Notes: a model not told the origin generated them from the sequence alone. A stretch of 35,108 bases of DNA from a virus (IMGVR_UViG_3300020060_000009); one strand, 5' to 3'; counted from the stretch's first letter, positions 1,309 through 12,161 are shown. Translations and numbers: made by a program.

Positions 1309-2568
1309 CTAGTAAGTCGTAGTTACCCAGCTAGAACCGTTCCACCTCTTTACAGGTTTGGTTACCCAAGCACTACCATTCCATACTTTAACAGGTTTTG
1401 CAACAAAAGATGAGCCATTATAAACCTTGATCTTTCCAGATGCGCTAGGGTAATAAACAACCATAGCAGCCATAGCAAGTACCCATAGATCAGGAGTACT
1501 ATCAGCGTCAGTGTTCGCAACACCAATCTGTGCATTGTCTATAGAGTTTGTACCTGTTGCAGTCCAAGCGACACCAGTGGTAGGGTCTGTTTCGGAAACA
1601 AGAGGCAACCCAAAAGCAGTTGTACCATTTGGGTTAGTACGAGGGGTTGTGTTACCAGCATCAACCGATGATGTTGAAGTTACTGTACCTCCCGATGCTG
1701 ATTTAATACGCAACTGGTAACTAGATGTCCCAGCAGCTTCCTCGCGCACACGCGCCAATACGAACACCCCTGAAATAATGTCAGAAGACCCTATACCAGC
1801 AGTCGATGAATCTGTCACGTTGTAATCAGCAATATCACCATTGTTATCTAGCTCAATCATTGTGCTACCAGATGTAGCTGTATCAGTAGGAGGTAACTCG
1901 TTGATATATGAATAAACACCAGTAGTAGCAGCATTGTCACCAGCAGCAGTAGGTAGTAAAATAGCAACCTTTGAGCCAACAGGAGCATACGTGTTATTCA
2001 CCGAACCTGAGCTGTCATTAACAATAACATTGTCAAAACGTAGGTCACAAGTACCGGAATCAATAACACCTAAACGAATAACATTCATGTCCATTGTTAC
2101 ACCTGTTGCGCCAGATGCGAATGCAACACCATTTATTGTTCCTTCACAAGTACCAGCAGCACGGTTATAGCGAAGTCCAACCTGATAAACTGTGCCTGTT
2201 GTAAGAGCAGAGCTATCTGAACCGCGCTGTATTGGACCCTGCGCATCAAAAAGACGCAAAGTATTATTGCTGTTTAATTGAATCATTGGACCATTGCCGT
2301 TAACATTGTCCCTGAATAAAGCAATAGTTATCGTACCAGCTGGGGCACTAACGATCTTAAGGTTAAATGTGAAGAAACGATCAGTTGCTACGGCAGTGGC
2401 CATGTATGTGTGCGTAAATGAGGGGGTAGTTGCGGCTGCATTGGCTCGTATTTCAGAACCTCCTGTGATAGGGGTTGTACTGTTAACCGTTATACCACCT
2501 GTTGAAGTTTCCCATTCAAAACCAGCAGTTGCGATTTTCCATTCCGCACCAGTAGCATATTTCAACAT
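1309..2568 (-). CDS. Virion receptor-binding/minor tail protein with ConA/LamG-like lectin domain and C-terminal KVWNGSxW repeats
   Basis: 419 aa, T/S/G/A-rich. N-terminal beta-sandwich-like pattern (..LRFDNVIVND) and three terminal KVYNGSSF/KVWNGSAW/KRWNGSSW repeats. Start overlaps the tailspike stop. Confidence 0.6.
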   Translation of the reverse strand: MLKYATGAEWKIATAGFEWETSTGGITVNSTTPITGGSEIRANAAATTPSFTHTYMATAVATDRFFTFNLKIVSAPAGTITIALFRDNVNGNGPMIQLNSNNTLRLFDAQGPIQRGSDSSALTTGTVYQVGLRYNRAAGTCEGTINGVAFASGATGVTMDMNVIRLGVIDSGTCDLRFDNVIVNDSSGSVNNTYAPVGSKVAILLPTAAGDNAATTGVYSYINELPPTDTATSGSTMIELDNNGDIADYNVTDSSTAGIGSSDIISGVFVLARVREEAAGTSSYQLRIKSASGGTVTSTSSVDAGNTTPRTNPNGTTAFGLPLVSETDPTTGVAWTATGTNSIDNAQIGVANTDADSTPDLWVLAMAAMVVYYPSASGKIKVYNGSSFVAKPVKVWNGSAWVTKPVKRWNGSSWVTTTY

Positions 2569-5500
2569 TAGTTAGTGTCCACCCAAAGATCACCTGTAGC
2601 AGGGCTAGAAGGGGCAGATGTACCCTGGCTTATTTTAGCTACAGTTGTTGAGGCAACATAATCAGTACCAGCGACTGCTGCTGTAAATGCGCTTGTACCG
2701 TTACCTTTCACAAGACCTGTAAGTGTTGATACCCCAGTACCTCCATCAGCAACAGTTAGGTCGGTTATACCTGTAATTGAACCGCCAGTAATTGTAACGC
2801 TTGATGACGCTTGGGTAGCGATACTTCCAAGCCCTAGTGTAGTTCGTTGCGCAGCAGCATCAGCATCATCCACTAATGCGCGCCCAGCTGTAGTAAATGT
2901 CGCAAGACTGGCTGTACCAGAACCTGTGAAGTAAGGCAAAGTATCTGCCGCTGATGTAAGACCAGCAATTGCAGTTAATTCACTGTCGAGTGGTTGTAGA
3001 GTTTCTATTTTATCTCTTACGGCATTCTTAGTAGGGACTTCTAATGAAGCGTTCCAAGCTGTTGCATCATAAGCTTCATCTGGAACTACAACATCAGAAG
3101 TGAATGTAGCAGCAGTTGTAGATAGATCTAGGTATTTTGTACCACCAAGTGCAAAGCCAAGATTAGACGCACCAATACGATACATACCCGTGTTAATCTC
3201 GGATGTAAATCCGTAAGATACAGCAGATGTTGAACCGTTATTTACATACCAGTTACCACCACTGTTCATGTAAGCAATAGCTGTGCCAGCACTGTTCTGC
3301 GCCTCTATATAGCGACCAGACTGAGAAGCAAATCCCTTTAAGGTAACTAGTTTGTCGGCAGCAGCTGTAGACAAAACATTGAACGGGAACTTACCCACTG
3401 TTGTGCTAACATCGTTTGTAGCATAGTTTACAAGCGTATCATAGATAACTCCTGATGGGATTGTACCACTTATCATTACATCAACACTGTTAGCATGAGT
3501 ACGTTCTTCTTTCCATGCTCTGTTACCAGTCCCTACAGCAAACACATTGCCAATAATTGTAATATCATTAGTTGCCACAGTTGCAGTATCTTGTAGTCTT
3601 ATAGCGTTTGTAGCTGTATTAAACTCACAGTTTACAATGTGAATCTTATTGCTTGATTTAAGGTTAATCCACGTTGATACAGTTGTGCCTGTGAACCAAC
3701 AGTTAGATATCCAACATTGAGTTTGGTATTGAAGATCAATACCAATTCCAGATGTAGATGATACGTTACACCAATCTAGGTAAATTCCTCCAGGAATGGT
3801 GGCAGCAGTAGGGTCGGACGATGAGTCCCAAACAGTAACAAGTGCATTCGTTGATTGCACAAAACGACAGTTTCTAAATTTAACTGTATCTTGGTTGGTT
3901 AGCTTGACATTGTTTGTAGTCGTATTGTTACCGTCAAAGGTAATATTTTCGAATACAATATCGTGTTTAAGATCAGCGTTTGTACTAGGGTTTGTAGTCC
4001 CAGTAATTTGAACCATATCAGTAAGAGTCACTGATGCAGATGTTTTGAAAGTTACTCCCCCAGATGACTGGCGAGCCATGCGTTCACCGCGAACGGTCAC
4101 ATTCTCTGGAACCGTTAGAGTAGCCGCAATTCTATAAGGGTTAGTCCCTGCAAGAATTTCAACTACACCACCACCAGCAGTGTTTACAGCATTAATAGCG
4201 GCTTGAATTTCAACATCGTCAGCTGTCCCATCGGCAGTATAATCGGCAACTCTTGTATTATCTCTGGTAACAGTTTGTCTCACTGTTCTTTTAATTTTAG
4301 GAGAGCTAATTGTTCCGCCGATATCTCCACCAATTTGAACCTTAGTATCTAAAGCTGTCTGTTGAAGAGTTGAAATAGGCTTTGAGGCGTCGGAGGTATT
4401 ATCAACATTCCCAAGTCCAACATCACCTTTGACGATACCAGTTGGAGTGTTGATGACTGGTGAAGTAAGTGTCTTATTAGTAAGTGTTTGTACCCCAGCA
4501 AGCGTAACATCTCCCTGCGGAGCAGCCGCAACTGCTTTAAGCACAATTTCCTGAGCTCTTCTACCGGATATCGCACGTGATACTGAACTTGTTCCGGCTG
4601 TAATTTCAGCAGACGGTATTTCAGCATAACTCGTATCAGGAGGAGTTTGCCACTGACCATCACCGCGAAGGTAATTACCAGCTCCAGGCGTACCAGTAGC
4701 AGCAATAGCAGCAATAGCAATATTAGATATAGTATTGCTTGCACCTGAAATAGTTTTGTTGGTTAGAGTTACAGAAGCCGCATTTTTAGTAGTGTCACTA
4801 GTATTGTCAACATTACTAAGACCAACAGCAGCTTTGTTCAATGGCTGGAATGTTTTGTCGCCACGGTAGTAGTCCGCAGTCGTCGTTGCGGTAATTGTTG
4901 CTTCTTTACCACTCAACGCCATAGATGTTGCTGTAGAGACTGGTTTGCTTGCGTCGGAAGTGTTATCTACATTGCTGAGGCCTACATCACCTTTAGCTAA
5001 GGCACGTGATTGCCACCCGTTTAATATGTCATATACTATAGAATCGCCATTAGAAACTGAGGCAAATGATGAAAGGTCTAAATCTGTTCCGGCTAAAGCT
5101 CTCGCATTCCATATACCGTTATTAGGGTCTACACTTAAAGCGACATTAGGAAAGTCACTGTTATCTACATTTATAATACCGTCTCCAGATATAGATTGAA
5201 CGCCATCCGAATCTACTGGGAAATTGTTTGCACCTTGATTATCCTGAATAATCGTATCTGAACCATCGTTATCAACAGCAGTAGTAAAGAATGTGAATGC
5301 GTTATCTGTGATAAGAGTAGCTTCTGCACCAGAAGAAACATGGACACCCGTTGCGAAACCAGCAATAGAGTTACCAGAAATAATACCCTTATCTTGTCCT
5401 CCTCCAACTGTTACACCAACAAATCCAACTTGTGGCGCTTGAGTAGCGGGGGCAGAACCCACACTTGAGATGCTATTTCCAGTTACTGTAGTAGCGAACC

Positions 5501-6752
5501 CAGGAGTTGTGCCATTCATCAGCACGGCTGAACCCTGATAGTTTAAGTAAATAGTGTTCCCACTAACAATATCACCATCAATAGCTGTTACAGCATTACC
5601 ACCAGCTTGGAATACAGAGTTACCTGTAAATGCAGTCCTATAGTCCATAGAACAAGCTTCACCATTTTTACAGAAGAATGAGTTACCTGCAATAGAACAA
5701 TGCTCGCCAATTGTGTGAATTAGTGGTCCACCGCCATTATTAACAGCGAATGCATAAACAAAGTTACCGGAAAATGATACATTTTGGTTTAATTCAATAC
5801 CACCAGCGACTGTATGAGGCACGATAAAGTGGCTACCAGTAACTCTACCTCTTGAACCAATGATAACCTGTCCACTACCGCTAGAGGCTTCAATTCTGCT
5901 TGCAATAACGTCAGTATAAAGACCCGTTGTGAAGAACCCAGATGTTGTTCCATTTTTTACATAACAGTTCTCAATAACACTATATTGTCCTGATATTGTT
6001 AAATTTTTACCTGAATTTGTATTTACAGTAACATCTTTGAATGTAAGGAGCTCGCCAGACAGTGTTAAGCTATTGCTTAATGTCAAGATTGTGTTACCAC
6101 TACCAGCACCGTGAATAGAAATACCAGTGAGAGCGAATGTTCCCCCTGTTTCTGTATAACTACCTGATTTTACGAAGATAGAATCCCCGTTTGAGGCCGC
6201 ATTTAGAGCATCTGTAAGAGTCGCATAGTCATCAGGAACAACTGCATCATAAATTTGTGGCGCAGTTGAACCAATTGAGGATACTACAGGGTTACGAGGG
6301 TCTGTATTATCTACAGTTACATTTGTACCAGCAATAACAGCTTGTACTGCACTGTCAGCCTTTGTTCCTTGAGTAGCAGTAGCAAATTCGTTAAATTCGT
6401 GAGAAGCTACAGAGCCTAACGTAGGTTTGCCTGTAAGGTCATTGTATGCCCCTGAAAGAGCTACCGACGCTAAACTAGAGATATTAGCTTTTAAGTTAAG
6501 AGCTGTTTGTGTTGCTGTGCTTACGGGTTTGTTGATATCAGAGGTGTTATCAACACTGGAAAGTCCGATATCAGTCTTGTCGATGATAACTACACCTTGC
6601 TTACCATTTACGCTAGTAACAAGATTAGATGCTGGAGGCCCGACAGGTCCCTCTGGGCCTACTTTGCCTGTGTGTTGTAATCTAATATTATGAGTGCGAT
6701 TGACAACTTTAATAGTCTTCTCGCGCTTATTGAGAATAATTCTTTGTGCCAT
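2568..6752 (-). CDS. Tailspike/tail fibre with two pectate-lyase-like right-handed beta-helix domains
   Basis: 1394 aa. Beta-helix start caps [28 protein letters not shown] (~6250) and [28 protein letters not shown] (~4230), each followed by ISGN/FTGN repeats. Collagen-like GPEGPVGPP, four GLxxVDNTSDxxKPxST fibre repeats, terminal [15 protein letters not shown]. Confidence 0.8.
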
Positions 6753-7087
6753 TACGATACCTCTATTTGATCAAGAGCTTCACAAACTTCGAATATTGGG
6801 AACTCTGATTCACAACCATCACAATCACCAGATGGAGATGGGTATTTAGCTGGTTCACCAACGGTTCCTGTAACATTGATCTGATAATAATATGTCCCCA
6901 GAGGAATTTCAGTCTCTGCGCCAGTAAAGAAAAATACTCCCTCGCCATCCGTAAGAGAAATGCTCTGTGTAAGAACATAAGCCTGTCCAGGCTTTCCTAT
7001 AAAAATAGCAGCAGTTACAGCGGTAACATCTGCGGCGTCAAGTGGAAGCGTTACGCTTTCCCCATATCTAATACTAATCGAGTCCAT
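6752..7087 (-). CDS. Small Ig-like virion adaptor (BppU N-terminal-like), first gene of tailspike operon
   Basis: 111 aa, [11 protein letters not shown]...[10 protein letters not shown] pattern typical of baseplate-upper Ig-like domains. Start of the tailspike overlaps its stop. Confidence 0.45.
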
Positions 7088-7212
7088 ATTTTCCTTCGGT
7101 AAGTCTAAGTTTTTGCAACATCGTTTCCATCGCTAGGAAACTTAGACACCTTATCATGAAAGCCTTACCACTTCCGAAGGAACGTTGCACTAATCGCTAG
7201 GATTTTGTGTCT
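7088..7212 (-). promoter_or_regulatory. Structured 5' leader with RBS-sequestering hairpin and a mutually exclusive alternative helix
   Basis: Perfect inverted repeats 7174-7182/7091-7099 (covers SD GAAGGAA) and 7138-7147/7103-7112. Alternative bulged helix 7179-7189/7114-7128. 10-nt direct repeat at 7129-7138 and 7193-7202. Confidence 0.7.
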
Positions 7213-7218
7213 AAACTA

Positions 7219-7229
7219 AGTATAACAGA
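7219..7229 (-). promoter_or_regulatory. Putative late promoter TCTGTTATACT (extended -10), copy 1
   Basis: Identical 11-mer at 7219, 7518 and 12151, each intergenic and upstream of a morphogenesis-region gene. Matches TGnTATAcT. Confidence 0.6.
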
Positions 7230-7481
7230 CTAGATTGCTTGGACTCTTACGCCTGTTTGAATTTGTGCATCTTCATCAGCACCAAATAGGAAATTAAGCC
7301 CACATTTGCGACAACGAGCTTCTCCACCACTGTTTGGAGTTACTTTAACACATAATGAGTTGCATTTATATAGTTTTTGATCAGACTTGCTAATGCGTTC
7401 ATACGGGCAACGCACTTCTAAAAGCACAGTTGAAGCCTGTGGCAATGCGTTTGAGTCTTTTAAGGGGTTTTCTTTTTGCAT
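7230..7481 (-). CDS. Mu Com-like zinc-finger protein (putative RNA-binding translational regulator)
   Basis: EVRC...KCNSLCVKV...GEARCRKCG aligns by eye with recalled Mu Com SIRCKNCNKLLFKA...IEIRCPRC, with an insertion between the first two Cys. Confidence 0.65.
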   Translation of the reverse strand: MQKENPLKDSNALPQASTVLLEVRCPYERISKSDQKLYKCNSLCVKVTPNSGGEARCRKCGLNFLFGADEDAQIQTGVRVQAI

Positions 7482-7517
7482 GTAATCTCGTTTGGATTTT
7501 TATTTATATCTTCCTTT

Positions 7518-7528
7518 AGTATAACAGA
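7518..7528 (-). promoter_or_regulatory. Putative late promoter TCTGTTATACT, copy 2
   Basis: Exact 11-mer just downstream of a terminator and upstream of the Com-like gene. Confidence 0.6.
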
Positions 7529-7531
7529 AAC

Positions 7532-7595
7532 AAAAAGGCAAAAAACAAGCCCCACAGCGAGACTTACTGTGGGGAATGGGGATTTGTGCCTTTTT
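7532..7595 (-). terminator. Intrinsic terminator closing the small-gene cassette
   Basis: CCCCACAG-9nt-CTGTGGGG (7550-7574) followed by CTTGTTTTTT on minus, plus an outer AAAAAGGCA/TGCCTTTTT pair. Confidence 0.75.
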
Positions 7596-7619
7596 CTTGT
7601 TAAAACGGCTTAGAGAGGC

Positions 7620-7883
7620 TTAGAACGCGTCAGAGGGATGTTCTAAGCGTGGTGCAGACACCTTATCATTGATAGTTGGGATATCACCTGTTTCTTTTTT
7701 AGGCACATTCTTGTTAATCACAGTTGCAGGGATATTTTTCTCGTAGTTGCTGCCATTGGCTTTCACTCGGTCGGTACGTTCCGACTTCTTCGATAAAAAA
7801 TCATCTAGACGCTTCTGCTCTTCACTACTAAGTTTGTAGTAGGGATTGTTTCTTAGCTCAAGTAATTGTTCTATACTTTTCAT
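7620..7883 (-). CDS. Hypothetical protein
   Basis: 87 aa ORF, SD GAAGGAA upstream. Confidence 0.65.
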   Translation of the reverse strand: MKSIEQLLELRNNPYYKLSSEEQKRLDDFLSKKSERTDRVKANGSNYEKNIPATVINKNVPKKETGDIPTINDKVSAPRLEHPSDAF

Positions 7884-12150: not shown

Positions 12151-12161
12151 AGTATAACAGA
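12151..12161 (-). promoter_or_regulatory. Putative late promoter TCTGTTATACT, copy 3
   Basis: Exact 11-mer between TerL stop and portal start. Confidence 0.6.

Follow-up and report, generated by a model that had tools for sequence, protein, structure and literature searches.

The subject of this analysis is a putative RNA leader of about 125 nucleotides (nt) in a stretch of viral DNA, IMGVR_UViG_3300020060_000009, where it directly precedes the genes of a tail-fibre module. The window, by which we mean the whole stretch of 35,108 nt, represents the reverse strand of an IMG/VR phage genome of 99 kb that has direct terminal repeats. Every gene around the leader lies on the minus strand of the window, and coordinates below refer to that strand and are given in mRNA sense. 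Upstream is an open reading frame (ORF) for an 83-amino-acid (aa), cysteine-rich, zinc-ribbon-like protein (7230-7481, minus strand, ATG at 7481), here called the zinc gene. A spacer of 142 nt separates it from the next ORF (6752-7087, minus strand), which encodes a 111-aa protein, heads the tail-fibre module and has a Shine–Dalgarno (SD) sequence, GAAGGA, at 7092-7097 ahead of its ATG at 7085-7087. Its stop codon overlaps the ATG of the following gene (TAATG), a 1394-aa tail fibre or tailspike (2568-6752, minus strand) with a collagen-like N-terminus and a beta-helix; this protein matches Pfam Beta_helix and, with expectation values (E) of ~1e-34, PHROG tail-fibre families. The 111-aa protein itself gives weak PHROG hints of a tail-fibre role. 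Its structure model, which is confident (mean predicted local distance difference test score, pLDDT, 85.5), is an immunoglobulin (Ig)-like beta-sandwich with weak Foldseek matches to Ig V domains and to Wzt carbohydrate-binding domains (E ~1e-3, template modelling (TM) score up to 0.59). When INPHARED was searched at DNA and protein level for the region, the portal protein and the zinc protein, no relatives were found among named phages.

The leader appears to carry a promoter separate from that of the zinc gene. An extended -10 element, TGTTATACT (7219-7227, minus strand), begins 2 nt past the stop codon of the zinc gene and is followed by TAGACA, a start-site motif that probably marks the 5' end of the leader RNA (7208-7213, minus strand). 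Among 19 upstream sequences examined, 18 carry TGnTATAAT or TGnTATACT 5 nt before TAGAC, the exception being L151 with GTGTATAAT and a 6-nt spacer. The zinc gene has the same extended -10 element (TGTTATACT, 7518-7526, minus strand) within the same TGTTATAMT-N5-TAGAYA motif, which is also found at genome positions 5030, 66840, 71473, 71772 and 91376. The conserved -10 at a set distance from TAGAC, together with the presence of the motif at other promoters, places the predicted start of the leader transcript at about 7212, and TAGACA is likely to be conserved at the leader 5' end because the same motif trails other promoters of the genome. Within the window the combination of TGTTATA(A/C)T, a gap of ~5 nt and TAGA(C/T)A recurs at 7518-7526, 7219-7227 and 12151-12159 (minus strand), and it probably represents a middle or late promoter class of this phage.

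The conserved fold of the leader

Homologous leaders from independent contigs, 16 at first and later 17 distinct sequences, were aligned and used to build a covariance model (R1), under which the 17 leaders score 89-132 bits. Their comparison indicates that the stretch is a conserved, folded and pseudoknotted leader RNA of the tail-fibre module, of an uncatalogued kind. The architecture is a three-way junction closed by helix P3, in which UGCAAC (7189-7184) pairs with GUUGCA (7119-7114), and it is preceded by a small hairpin, P2 (7204-7201 with 7195-7192; AAUC and GAUU around a CUAGC loop). One arm of the junction consists of P5a (7180-7177 with 7152-7149; CCUU and AAGG) and the P5b hairpin (7158-7175), whose stem pairs GGAAGU (7175-7170) with GCUUUC (7163-7158) and whose loop, L5, reads GGUAAG (7164-7169). 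The other arm is the P4 hairpin (7123-7141), with GUUUCC (7141-7136) and GGAAAC (7128-7123) enclosing a UAGCGAU loop, and a near-invariant junction sequence, UGUCUAA, occupies 7142-7148. The pseudoknot forms between L5 (7169-7164) and CUUACC at 7103-7098, and its 3' strand ends 9-13 nt upstream of the start codon, usually 10, as is the case in this phage.

Each of these helices is documented by natural variation among the homologs. P3 is paired in 98.6% of alignment cells and has two pairs with compensatory change, its covariation appearing as GCGA/UCGC in most homologs and ACGA/UCGU in L148. P4 is paired in 100% of cells, with compensatory changes in three pairs; P5a is paired in 93.7%, and a C:G pair becomes U:A in five sequences; P5b has compensatory changes in all six of its stem pairs; and P2 changes to AGUC/GACU in L137/L175 and L146. 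The pseudoknot is paired in 90.6% of cells although it was left out of the model that produced the alignment, and GUAAG/CUUAC is replaced by ACGAG/CUCGU in L138, L148, L112 and the partial sequence L150 and by UGGG/CCCA in L137/L175.

Across the nested helices and the pseudoknot, 91.6% of cells hold standard pairs in the model-derived alignment, compared with 31-46% when the partners are slid by 1-3 columns. Double-sided, compensatory changes occur in 18 of the 31 pairs of that same alignment, and none of 500 shuffles reaches the observed values. An alignment made blind to structure with MAFFT gives a similar picture (86.1% paired compared with 31-48% in slid controls, and 16 compensatory pairs), and RNAalifold recovered the pseudoknot helix and P4 unaided. 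Near-invariant sequences are found in the unpaired parts, namely YAGYGAY in the P4 loop, CAAUNU in the linker between P4 and P3, and UGUCUAA in the junction, and these are far more conserved than the sequences of the stems. The P2 and P4 loops also resemble one another throughout the family (consensus YCYAGNGAY), and this likeness is what a preliminary description of the locus had noticed as a 10-nt direct repeat. The repeat, UCCUAGCGAU, is indeed present at 7202-7193, in P2, and at 7138-7129, in P4, with no other copy in the 35-kb window.

The position of the RNA is as constant as its fold. All 17 copies directly precede the 111-aa gene, whatever gene lies upstream, the conserved region upstream of the homologs of that gene is ~130 nt long, and the four leader-bearing genomes that were searched whole hold one copy each. 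A cmscan of positions 6900-7700 against Rfam 15 with permissive filters matched no family (the best hit was RsaH, at 17.4 bits against a gathering threshold of 50, E = 5.1), and ARAGORN found no tRNA or tmRNA gene in 6800-7700. Searching 185,579 prokaryote species genomes by DNA pattern and covariance model yielded no leader, all 20 pattern matches having failed the model. The DNA-pattern search for the leader returned only leaders already known and chance matches in coding sequence.

Other readings of these nucleotides were considered and set aside. A 38-aa ORF opening with GTG (7190-7074, minus strand) runs within the leader and extends over the first nucleotides of the 111-aa gene; its stops and starts are not conserved in homologs, and it is probably no gene. 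Stops and starts are likewise not conserved in the frame that opens at GUG 7149, and there the compensatory changes of P4 alter the encoded residues, which argues that RNA structure and not a peptide is maintained. A further helix, P1, between UAGACAC (7213-7207) and GUGUCUA (7149-7143), shows no covariation and two uncompensated changes, and TAGAYA follows other promoters as well. A topology like that of the hepatitis delta virus (HDV) ribozyme, built from P1 and P3, was dropped, as there is no Rfam match and the defining core features are absent.

A predicted competing fold in this phage

The preliminary description had proposed that the leader alternates between two mutually exclusive folds, in one of which (OFF) the SD sequence is buried. 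The pairings on which the OFF fold depends are present on the minus strand as described: UUCCUUCGG (7182-7174) is perfectly complementary to CCGAAGGAA (7099-7091), a stretch that covers the SD sequence GAAGGA, whose end is 4 nt from the ATG (7087-7085), and GUCUAAGUUU (7147-7138) is perfectly complementary to AAACUUAGAC (7112-7103), giving a helix of 10 bp. When the sequence of this phage is folded with ViennaRNA, the structure of minimum free energy (MFE), computed without the pseudoknot at -36.8 kcal/mol, includes both helices, with pair probabilities of 0.95-1.0 for seven of the nine OFF pairs and of 0.77-0.94 in the 10-bp helix. The folding energy of a 160-nt segment is ordinary for its composition (z = -1.44; 15 of 200 shuffles are at least as stable).

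The burial of the SD sequence is thus the dominant prediction for this phage, but its pairings are not conserved in the homologous leaders. Across the 17 leaders 60.1% of cells are paired when the two helices, OFF and 10-bp, are counted together, compared with a shuffle mean of 59.9% and with 37-56% in slid controls; their 5' strands (7174-7182 and 7138-7147) and 3' strands (7091-7099 and 7103-7112) form partners specific to this phage. The helix assigned to the ON fold divides into two parts. Its core, GCAAC/GUUGC, lies within the strands of P3 and covaries, whereas its extension, GUUCC/GGAAAC, clashes with the conserved P4 and shows no covariation. Comparison of the sequences indicates that the two helices of the OFF fold are specific to a lineage, and that the junction with its pseudoknot is the fold that evolution keeps.

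Competition between the two structures may nonetheless be real in this phage. For a nascent RNA that ends at the 3' strand of P3 (7114), the MFE structure is the conserved junction; once the SD region is added the MFE structure flips to the OFF fold, at -31.2 kcal/mol for a transcript reaching 7091 compared with about -23 before. Constraining the full sequence to the conserved fold gives -24.4 kcal/mol, to which the pseudoknot duplex adds about -5.7, compared with -36.8 for the MFE structure that contains the OFF helices. This order of folding and these constrained energies make a two-state system plausible for this one phage, but there is no alternative that sequesters the SD sequence throughout the family. 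The locus also illustrates how comparison can overturn a plausible switch model drawn from a single sequence: evolution keeps other helices than those that prevail in the thermodynamic prediction for this phage.

Possible workings of the leader

We give a probability of roughly 0.6 to the reading that window positions 7213-7088 (minus strand) act in cis as a translational leader of the 111-aa gene and the tail-fibre module, setting the use of the first start codon. Translational control, the identity of the ON state and the participation of any effector are all three points that we infer from the sequences. In the conserved fold UUCCUU, a pyrimidine tract with the potential to pair with the SD sequence, would be held in P5a by the SD-like AAGG, and the SD sequence and AUG would be placed immediately 3' of the pseudoknot, within an A-rich single strand, which can be read as the translatable state. 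In this phage only, the long helix between the anti-SD and SD sequences, with the 10-bp helix as a helper, would form a competing closed state, which is not the predicted ground state until the last ~25 nt are synthesized. The output would then depend on how the molecules partition between the two folds, a division that would be set co-transcriptionally and possibly also by a factor recognizing the two hairpin loops, which are similar, and the invariant junction. The invariant unpaired nucleotides suggest recognition by a factor, or else tertiary packing.

Several observations weigh against this reading. Compared free of any alignment, the best duplex between anti-SD and SD sequences has an energy of -14.4 kcal/mol in this phage and no better than -0.6 to -7.3 kcal/mol in the 15 other leaders. 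Sequestration of the SD sequence is not a family trait, and its predicted partner differs between homologs, being the P5a strand here only, the P2 arm in L152, L138 and L112, and local hairpins or nothing elsewhere. The conserved fold is not recovered as the MFE structure in most homologs under nearest-neighbour folding, with a gap of 1-15 kcal/mol. The family of 17 sequences is also small and fairly close, such that the invariance of loops and junction may partly reflect limited divergence, and it is possible that the leader has a role in RNA stability, processing or transcription instead.

Pseudoknots near ribosome binding sites have known precedents. The leaders of T4 gene 32 and of E. coli rpsO (S15) are pseudoknotted translational operators, and they resemble the present RNA in having a pseudoknot in the 5' untranslated region (UTR) near the ribosome binding site, an SD sequence and AUG in an A-rich strand, and an output matched to the needs of assembly. 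The present leader differs from them in that its pseudoknot is part of a larger three-way junction, with no sequence relation to either and no known binding protein. To our knowledge, few structural operons of phages have a structured leader RNA with clear covariation, and no such leader has been catalogued for tail-fibre genes. A compact leader of ~125 nt with a defined promoter, a pseudoknot adjoining the SD sequence and natural compensatory variants could reveal by what means a phage adjusts when, or in what quantity, its receptor-binding proteins are made.

Among the alternatives, the one that survives best, though we still consider it unlikely, is that the leader serves as an operator for some other trans-acting protein, of phage or host and possibly dimeric, that reads the P2 and P4 loops and the junction and either represses or activates translation, a situation comparable to that of T4 gene 32 or ribosomal protein S15 and their leaders. 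In favour are two hairpins whose near-identical loops are a family-wide feature, the strong conservation of UGUCUAA, the P4 loop and the CAAUNU linker relative to the stems, and a pseudoknot that adjoins the ribosome binding site. The similarity of the loops could instead serve tertiary contacts within the RNA. No candidate protein was identified, and the 111-aa product, an Ig-like beta-sandwich, shows no sign of RNA binding. About as doubtful is a broader proposal, that the leader belongs to a new class of sensor RNA, riboswitch-like or factor-bound, which would use its three-way junction and SD-proximal pseudoknot to tune synthesis of the receptor-binding apparatus to a cellular signal, with the P2-type hairpin that it shares with the zinc-gene mRNA as a second regulatory handle.

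A small-molecule or ion riboswitch, in which the junction and pseudoknot form an aptamer and the ligand fixes the pseudoknot, sets access to the SD sequence and ties fibre synthesis to host physiology, is less probable again. The layout is aptamer-like, with covarying stems around an invariant junction and a pseudoknot that reaches the SD sequence; there is no terminator, so any control would be translational; and Rfam holds no known class that matches. SD-proximal pseudoknots are a feature of riboswitches such as preQ1-II and SAM-II, and like them the present leader places covarying helices around invariant unpaired nucleotides and a pseudoknot strand beside the SD sequence, with any control falling at translation initiation. 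Unlike them, its SD sequence lies outside the pseudoknot, it has no Rfam match, and it is found only in a small group of uncultured phages. The narrowness of that group, confined to phages by the search of prokaryote genomes described above, counts against a riboswitch, as does a tail-fibre structural gene context that offers no hint of a ligand and the lack of a consistent, conserved alternative helix among homologs that could act as an expression platform.

Still less likely is a role in transcription or RNA fate, either as an element of processive antitermination of the HK022 put type or as a 5' stabilizer or processing element of the tail-fibre mRNA. The leader does open the transcript of a very long operon (111 aa, 1394 aa, then more), with hairpins near the promoter, and a P2-like hairpin also follows the promoter of the zinc gene. 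However, the tight spacing of 9-13 nt between pseudoknot and AUG points to the ribosome binding site, positions 6500-7088 contain no strong terminator (only one weak 6-bp stem, inside coding sequence), and the Rfam search gave no match to known elements of such a type.

The zinc gene and its surroundings

The preliminary description had called the 83-aa protein Com-like and had made it and the leader a unit of the com/mom type. In phage Mu, Com is a protein of 62 aa whose N-terminus holds a CCCC zinc finger and whose C-terminal tail is disordered, and the loop motif selected for it in vitro is 5'-CC(N)2-3GAG-3' (PMC6483171). Sequence and model comparisons indicate that the 83-aa protein is not a relative of Com: no Com match was obtained by Pfam, PDB profile or fold search. 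Run against Pfam at E <= 10, hmmscan gave no Com and only Zn_ribbon_4 (E = 0.03, below cutoff), and at E <= 1 the 41 family members that were searched gave no Com (Zn_ribbon_Com) but only sub-threshold generic ribbons, the best being Zn_ribbon_4 (E = 0.0096) and an Elf1-like domain (0.041). PHROGs had no match for the 83-aa protein, and a profile search of PDB sequences with the zinc-ribbon family returned nothing below E = 0.18. The family numbers ~87 small metagenome proteins of 68-84 aa, none of the 87 with a precomputed Pfam domain or an informative name.

The invariant cysteines in an alignment of 41 members are C25, C40, C44, C57 and C60, spaced C-x14-C-x3-C-x12-C-x2-C, with a single CxxC and a position in the middle of the protein. 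An AlphaFold2 model (mean pLDDT 79, ~89 over residues 21-70) has an all-beta core at residues 21-77 and a low-confidence N-terminus. Foldseek comparison of this model with the PDB and BFVD gave no match at E <= 0.001, in libraries whose inclusion of a Com model is unconfirmed, and the best viral match was an uncharacterised 'Cysteine-rich protein' at E = 0.027. It is possible that the zinc-ribbon protein has a role in fibre assembly or is a component of the virion.

The distribution of the two elements speaks to their independence. Homologs of the zinc gene occur at 15 viral loci, all at the head of tail-fibre genes, and in L002, L003 and L006-L015 the next gene abuts or overlaps the zinc gene with no leader between them. 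Conversely, the zinc gene is directly upstream of the leader in only two of the 17 cases, this window and L004/L138. One complete genome (G001, 100% complete, 104 kb) has the leader, at 123 bits, and no zinc gene by protein or profile search. Five others (G007-G011, 99-100% complete) have the zinc gene abutting tail-fibre genes and no leader, as judged with the same model that finds leaders in G000, G001, G004 and G005 at E < 1e-16. In G004 and G005 (56% and 87% complete) both are present, with the zinc gene 4.6-5 kb upstream of the leader and a fibre gene of 745-954 aa between them. Each element thus occurs without the other in complete genomes, contrary to the proposed coupling, and this independence argues that their adjacency here reflects gene order and not a functional pair; as far as the genomes indicate, the zinc gene is unrelated to the leader and is its neighbour here by gene order only.

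There are also similarities to the Mu system. A gene for a small cysteine-rich protein lies just upstream of a leader that can, in this phage, bury the SD sequence of the next gene, and the zinc gene adjoins the leader both here and in L004/L138. The P2 loop of most homologs, CC-YA-GAG, resembles the Com-selected 5'-CC(N)2-3GAG-3' (PMC6483171), but the P2 loop of this window has GCG in place of GAG; and a P2-like hairpin is found on the zinc gene's own SD sequence in close relatives. Beyond the missing homology, the single CxxC pattern is unlike the N-terminal CCCC finger of Com (PMC6483171), the RNA is a 125-nt junction with a pseudoknot where the Com system uses a hairpin beside one inhibitory stem, and the target is a structural tail-fibre module instead of a DNA-modification gene. 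That the 83-aa protein is a Com-type translational activator, which binds the leader beside it, opens the fold that buries the SD sequence and switches on the synthesis of the tail fibre, is very improbable given an intact leader in a complete genome that has no zinc gene, zinc genes in complete genomes that have no leader, and a whole tail-fibre gene between the two in G004 and G005. Of the earlier proposal that a leader gates the tail-fibre operon, there stands a structured RNA directly before the operon, but control by the zinc protein finds no support in either homology or linkage. Because of the likeness of the P2 loop motif and the hairpin at the zinc-gene SD sequence, we keep a small probability that the zinc protein binds P2-type hairpins; the distribution data argue against such binding being required.

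The hairpin in question, AAUCC-AAAC-GAGAUUA, lies in the 5' UTR of the zinc gene (7483-7498, minus strand), and 1 nt separates its 3' arm from the ATG at 7481. It is homologous to P2, and the 3' arm overlaps the likely SD sequence (GAGA) of the zinc gene. It covers the SD sequence of the zinc gene in four close relatives, is conserved in L002, L003 and L004, and is absent before distant homologs of the zinc gene. Judged from its position and its likeness to P2, it could be an autoregulatory site or a leader module shared by the two transcripts.

Three further observations concern the arrangement of the region. In phages of 72-104 kb that differ in other respects, a member of the zinc-ribbon family is always the opening gene of the tail-fibre region and usually abuts the fibre gene. 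Compared with window positions 7230-7087, G004 (L002/L175) and G005 (L003/L112) have, between zinc gene and leader, the extra 745-954-aa tail-fibre gene together with its neighbours; the arrangement looks like the gain or loss of a fibre as a cassette, with the promoter and leader marking a module boundary. Upstream of the zinc gene a strong intrinsic terminator (7550-7574, minus strand), with a 9-bp stem followed by a T-run, ends the preceding unit of small genes, and L002, L003 and L004 keep its hairpin upstream of their zinc genes as well.

That unit follows the head genes of the phage, namely the portal gene (12093-10711, minus strand) and a gene for a MuF-like head protein (10709-8670, minus strand), after which come several small ORFs. 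The window differs from the stored genome record at one base of the 35,108, at window position 113. In the MuF-like head protein the C-terminal residues 518-632 match, at E = 1e-4, a PHROG family with the annotation Alt-like RNA polymerase ADP-ribosyltransferase.

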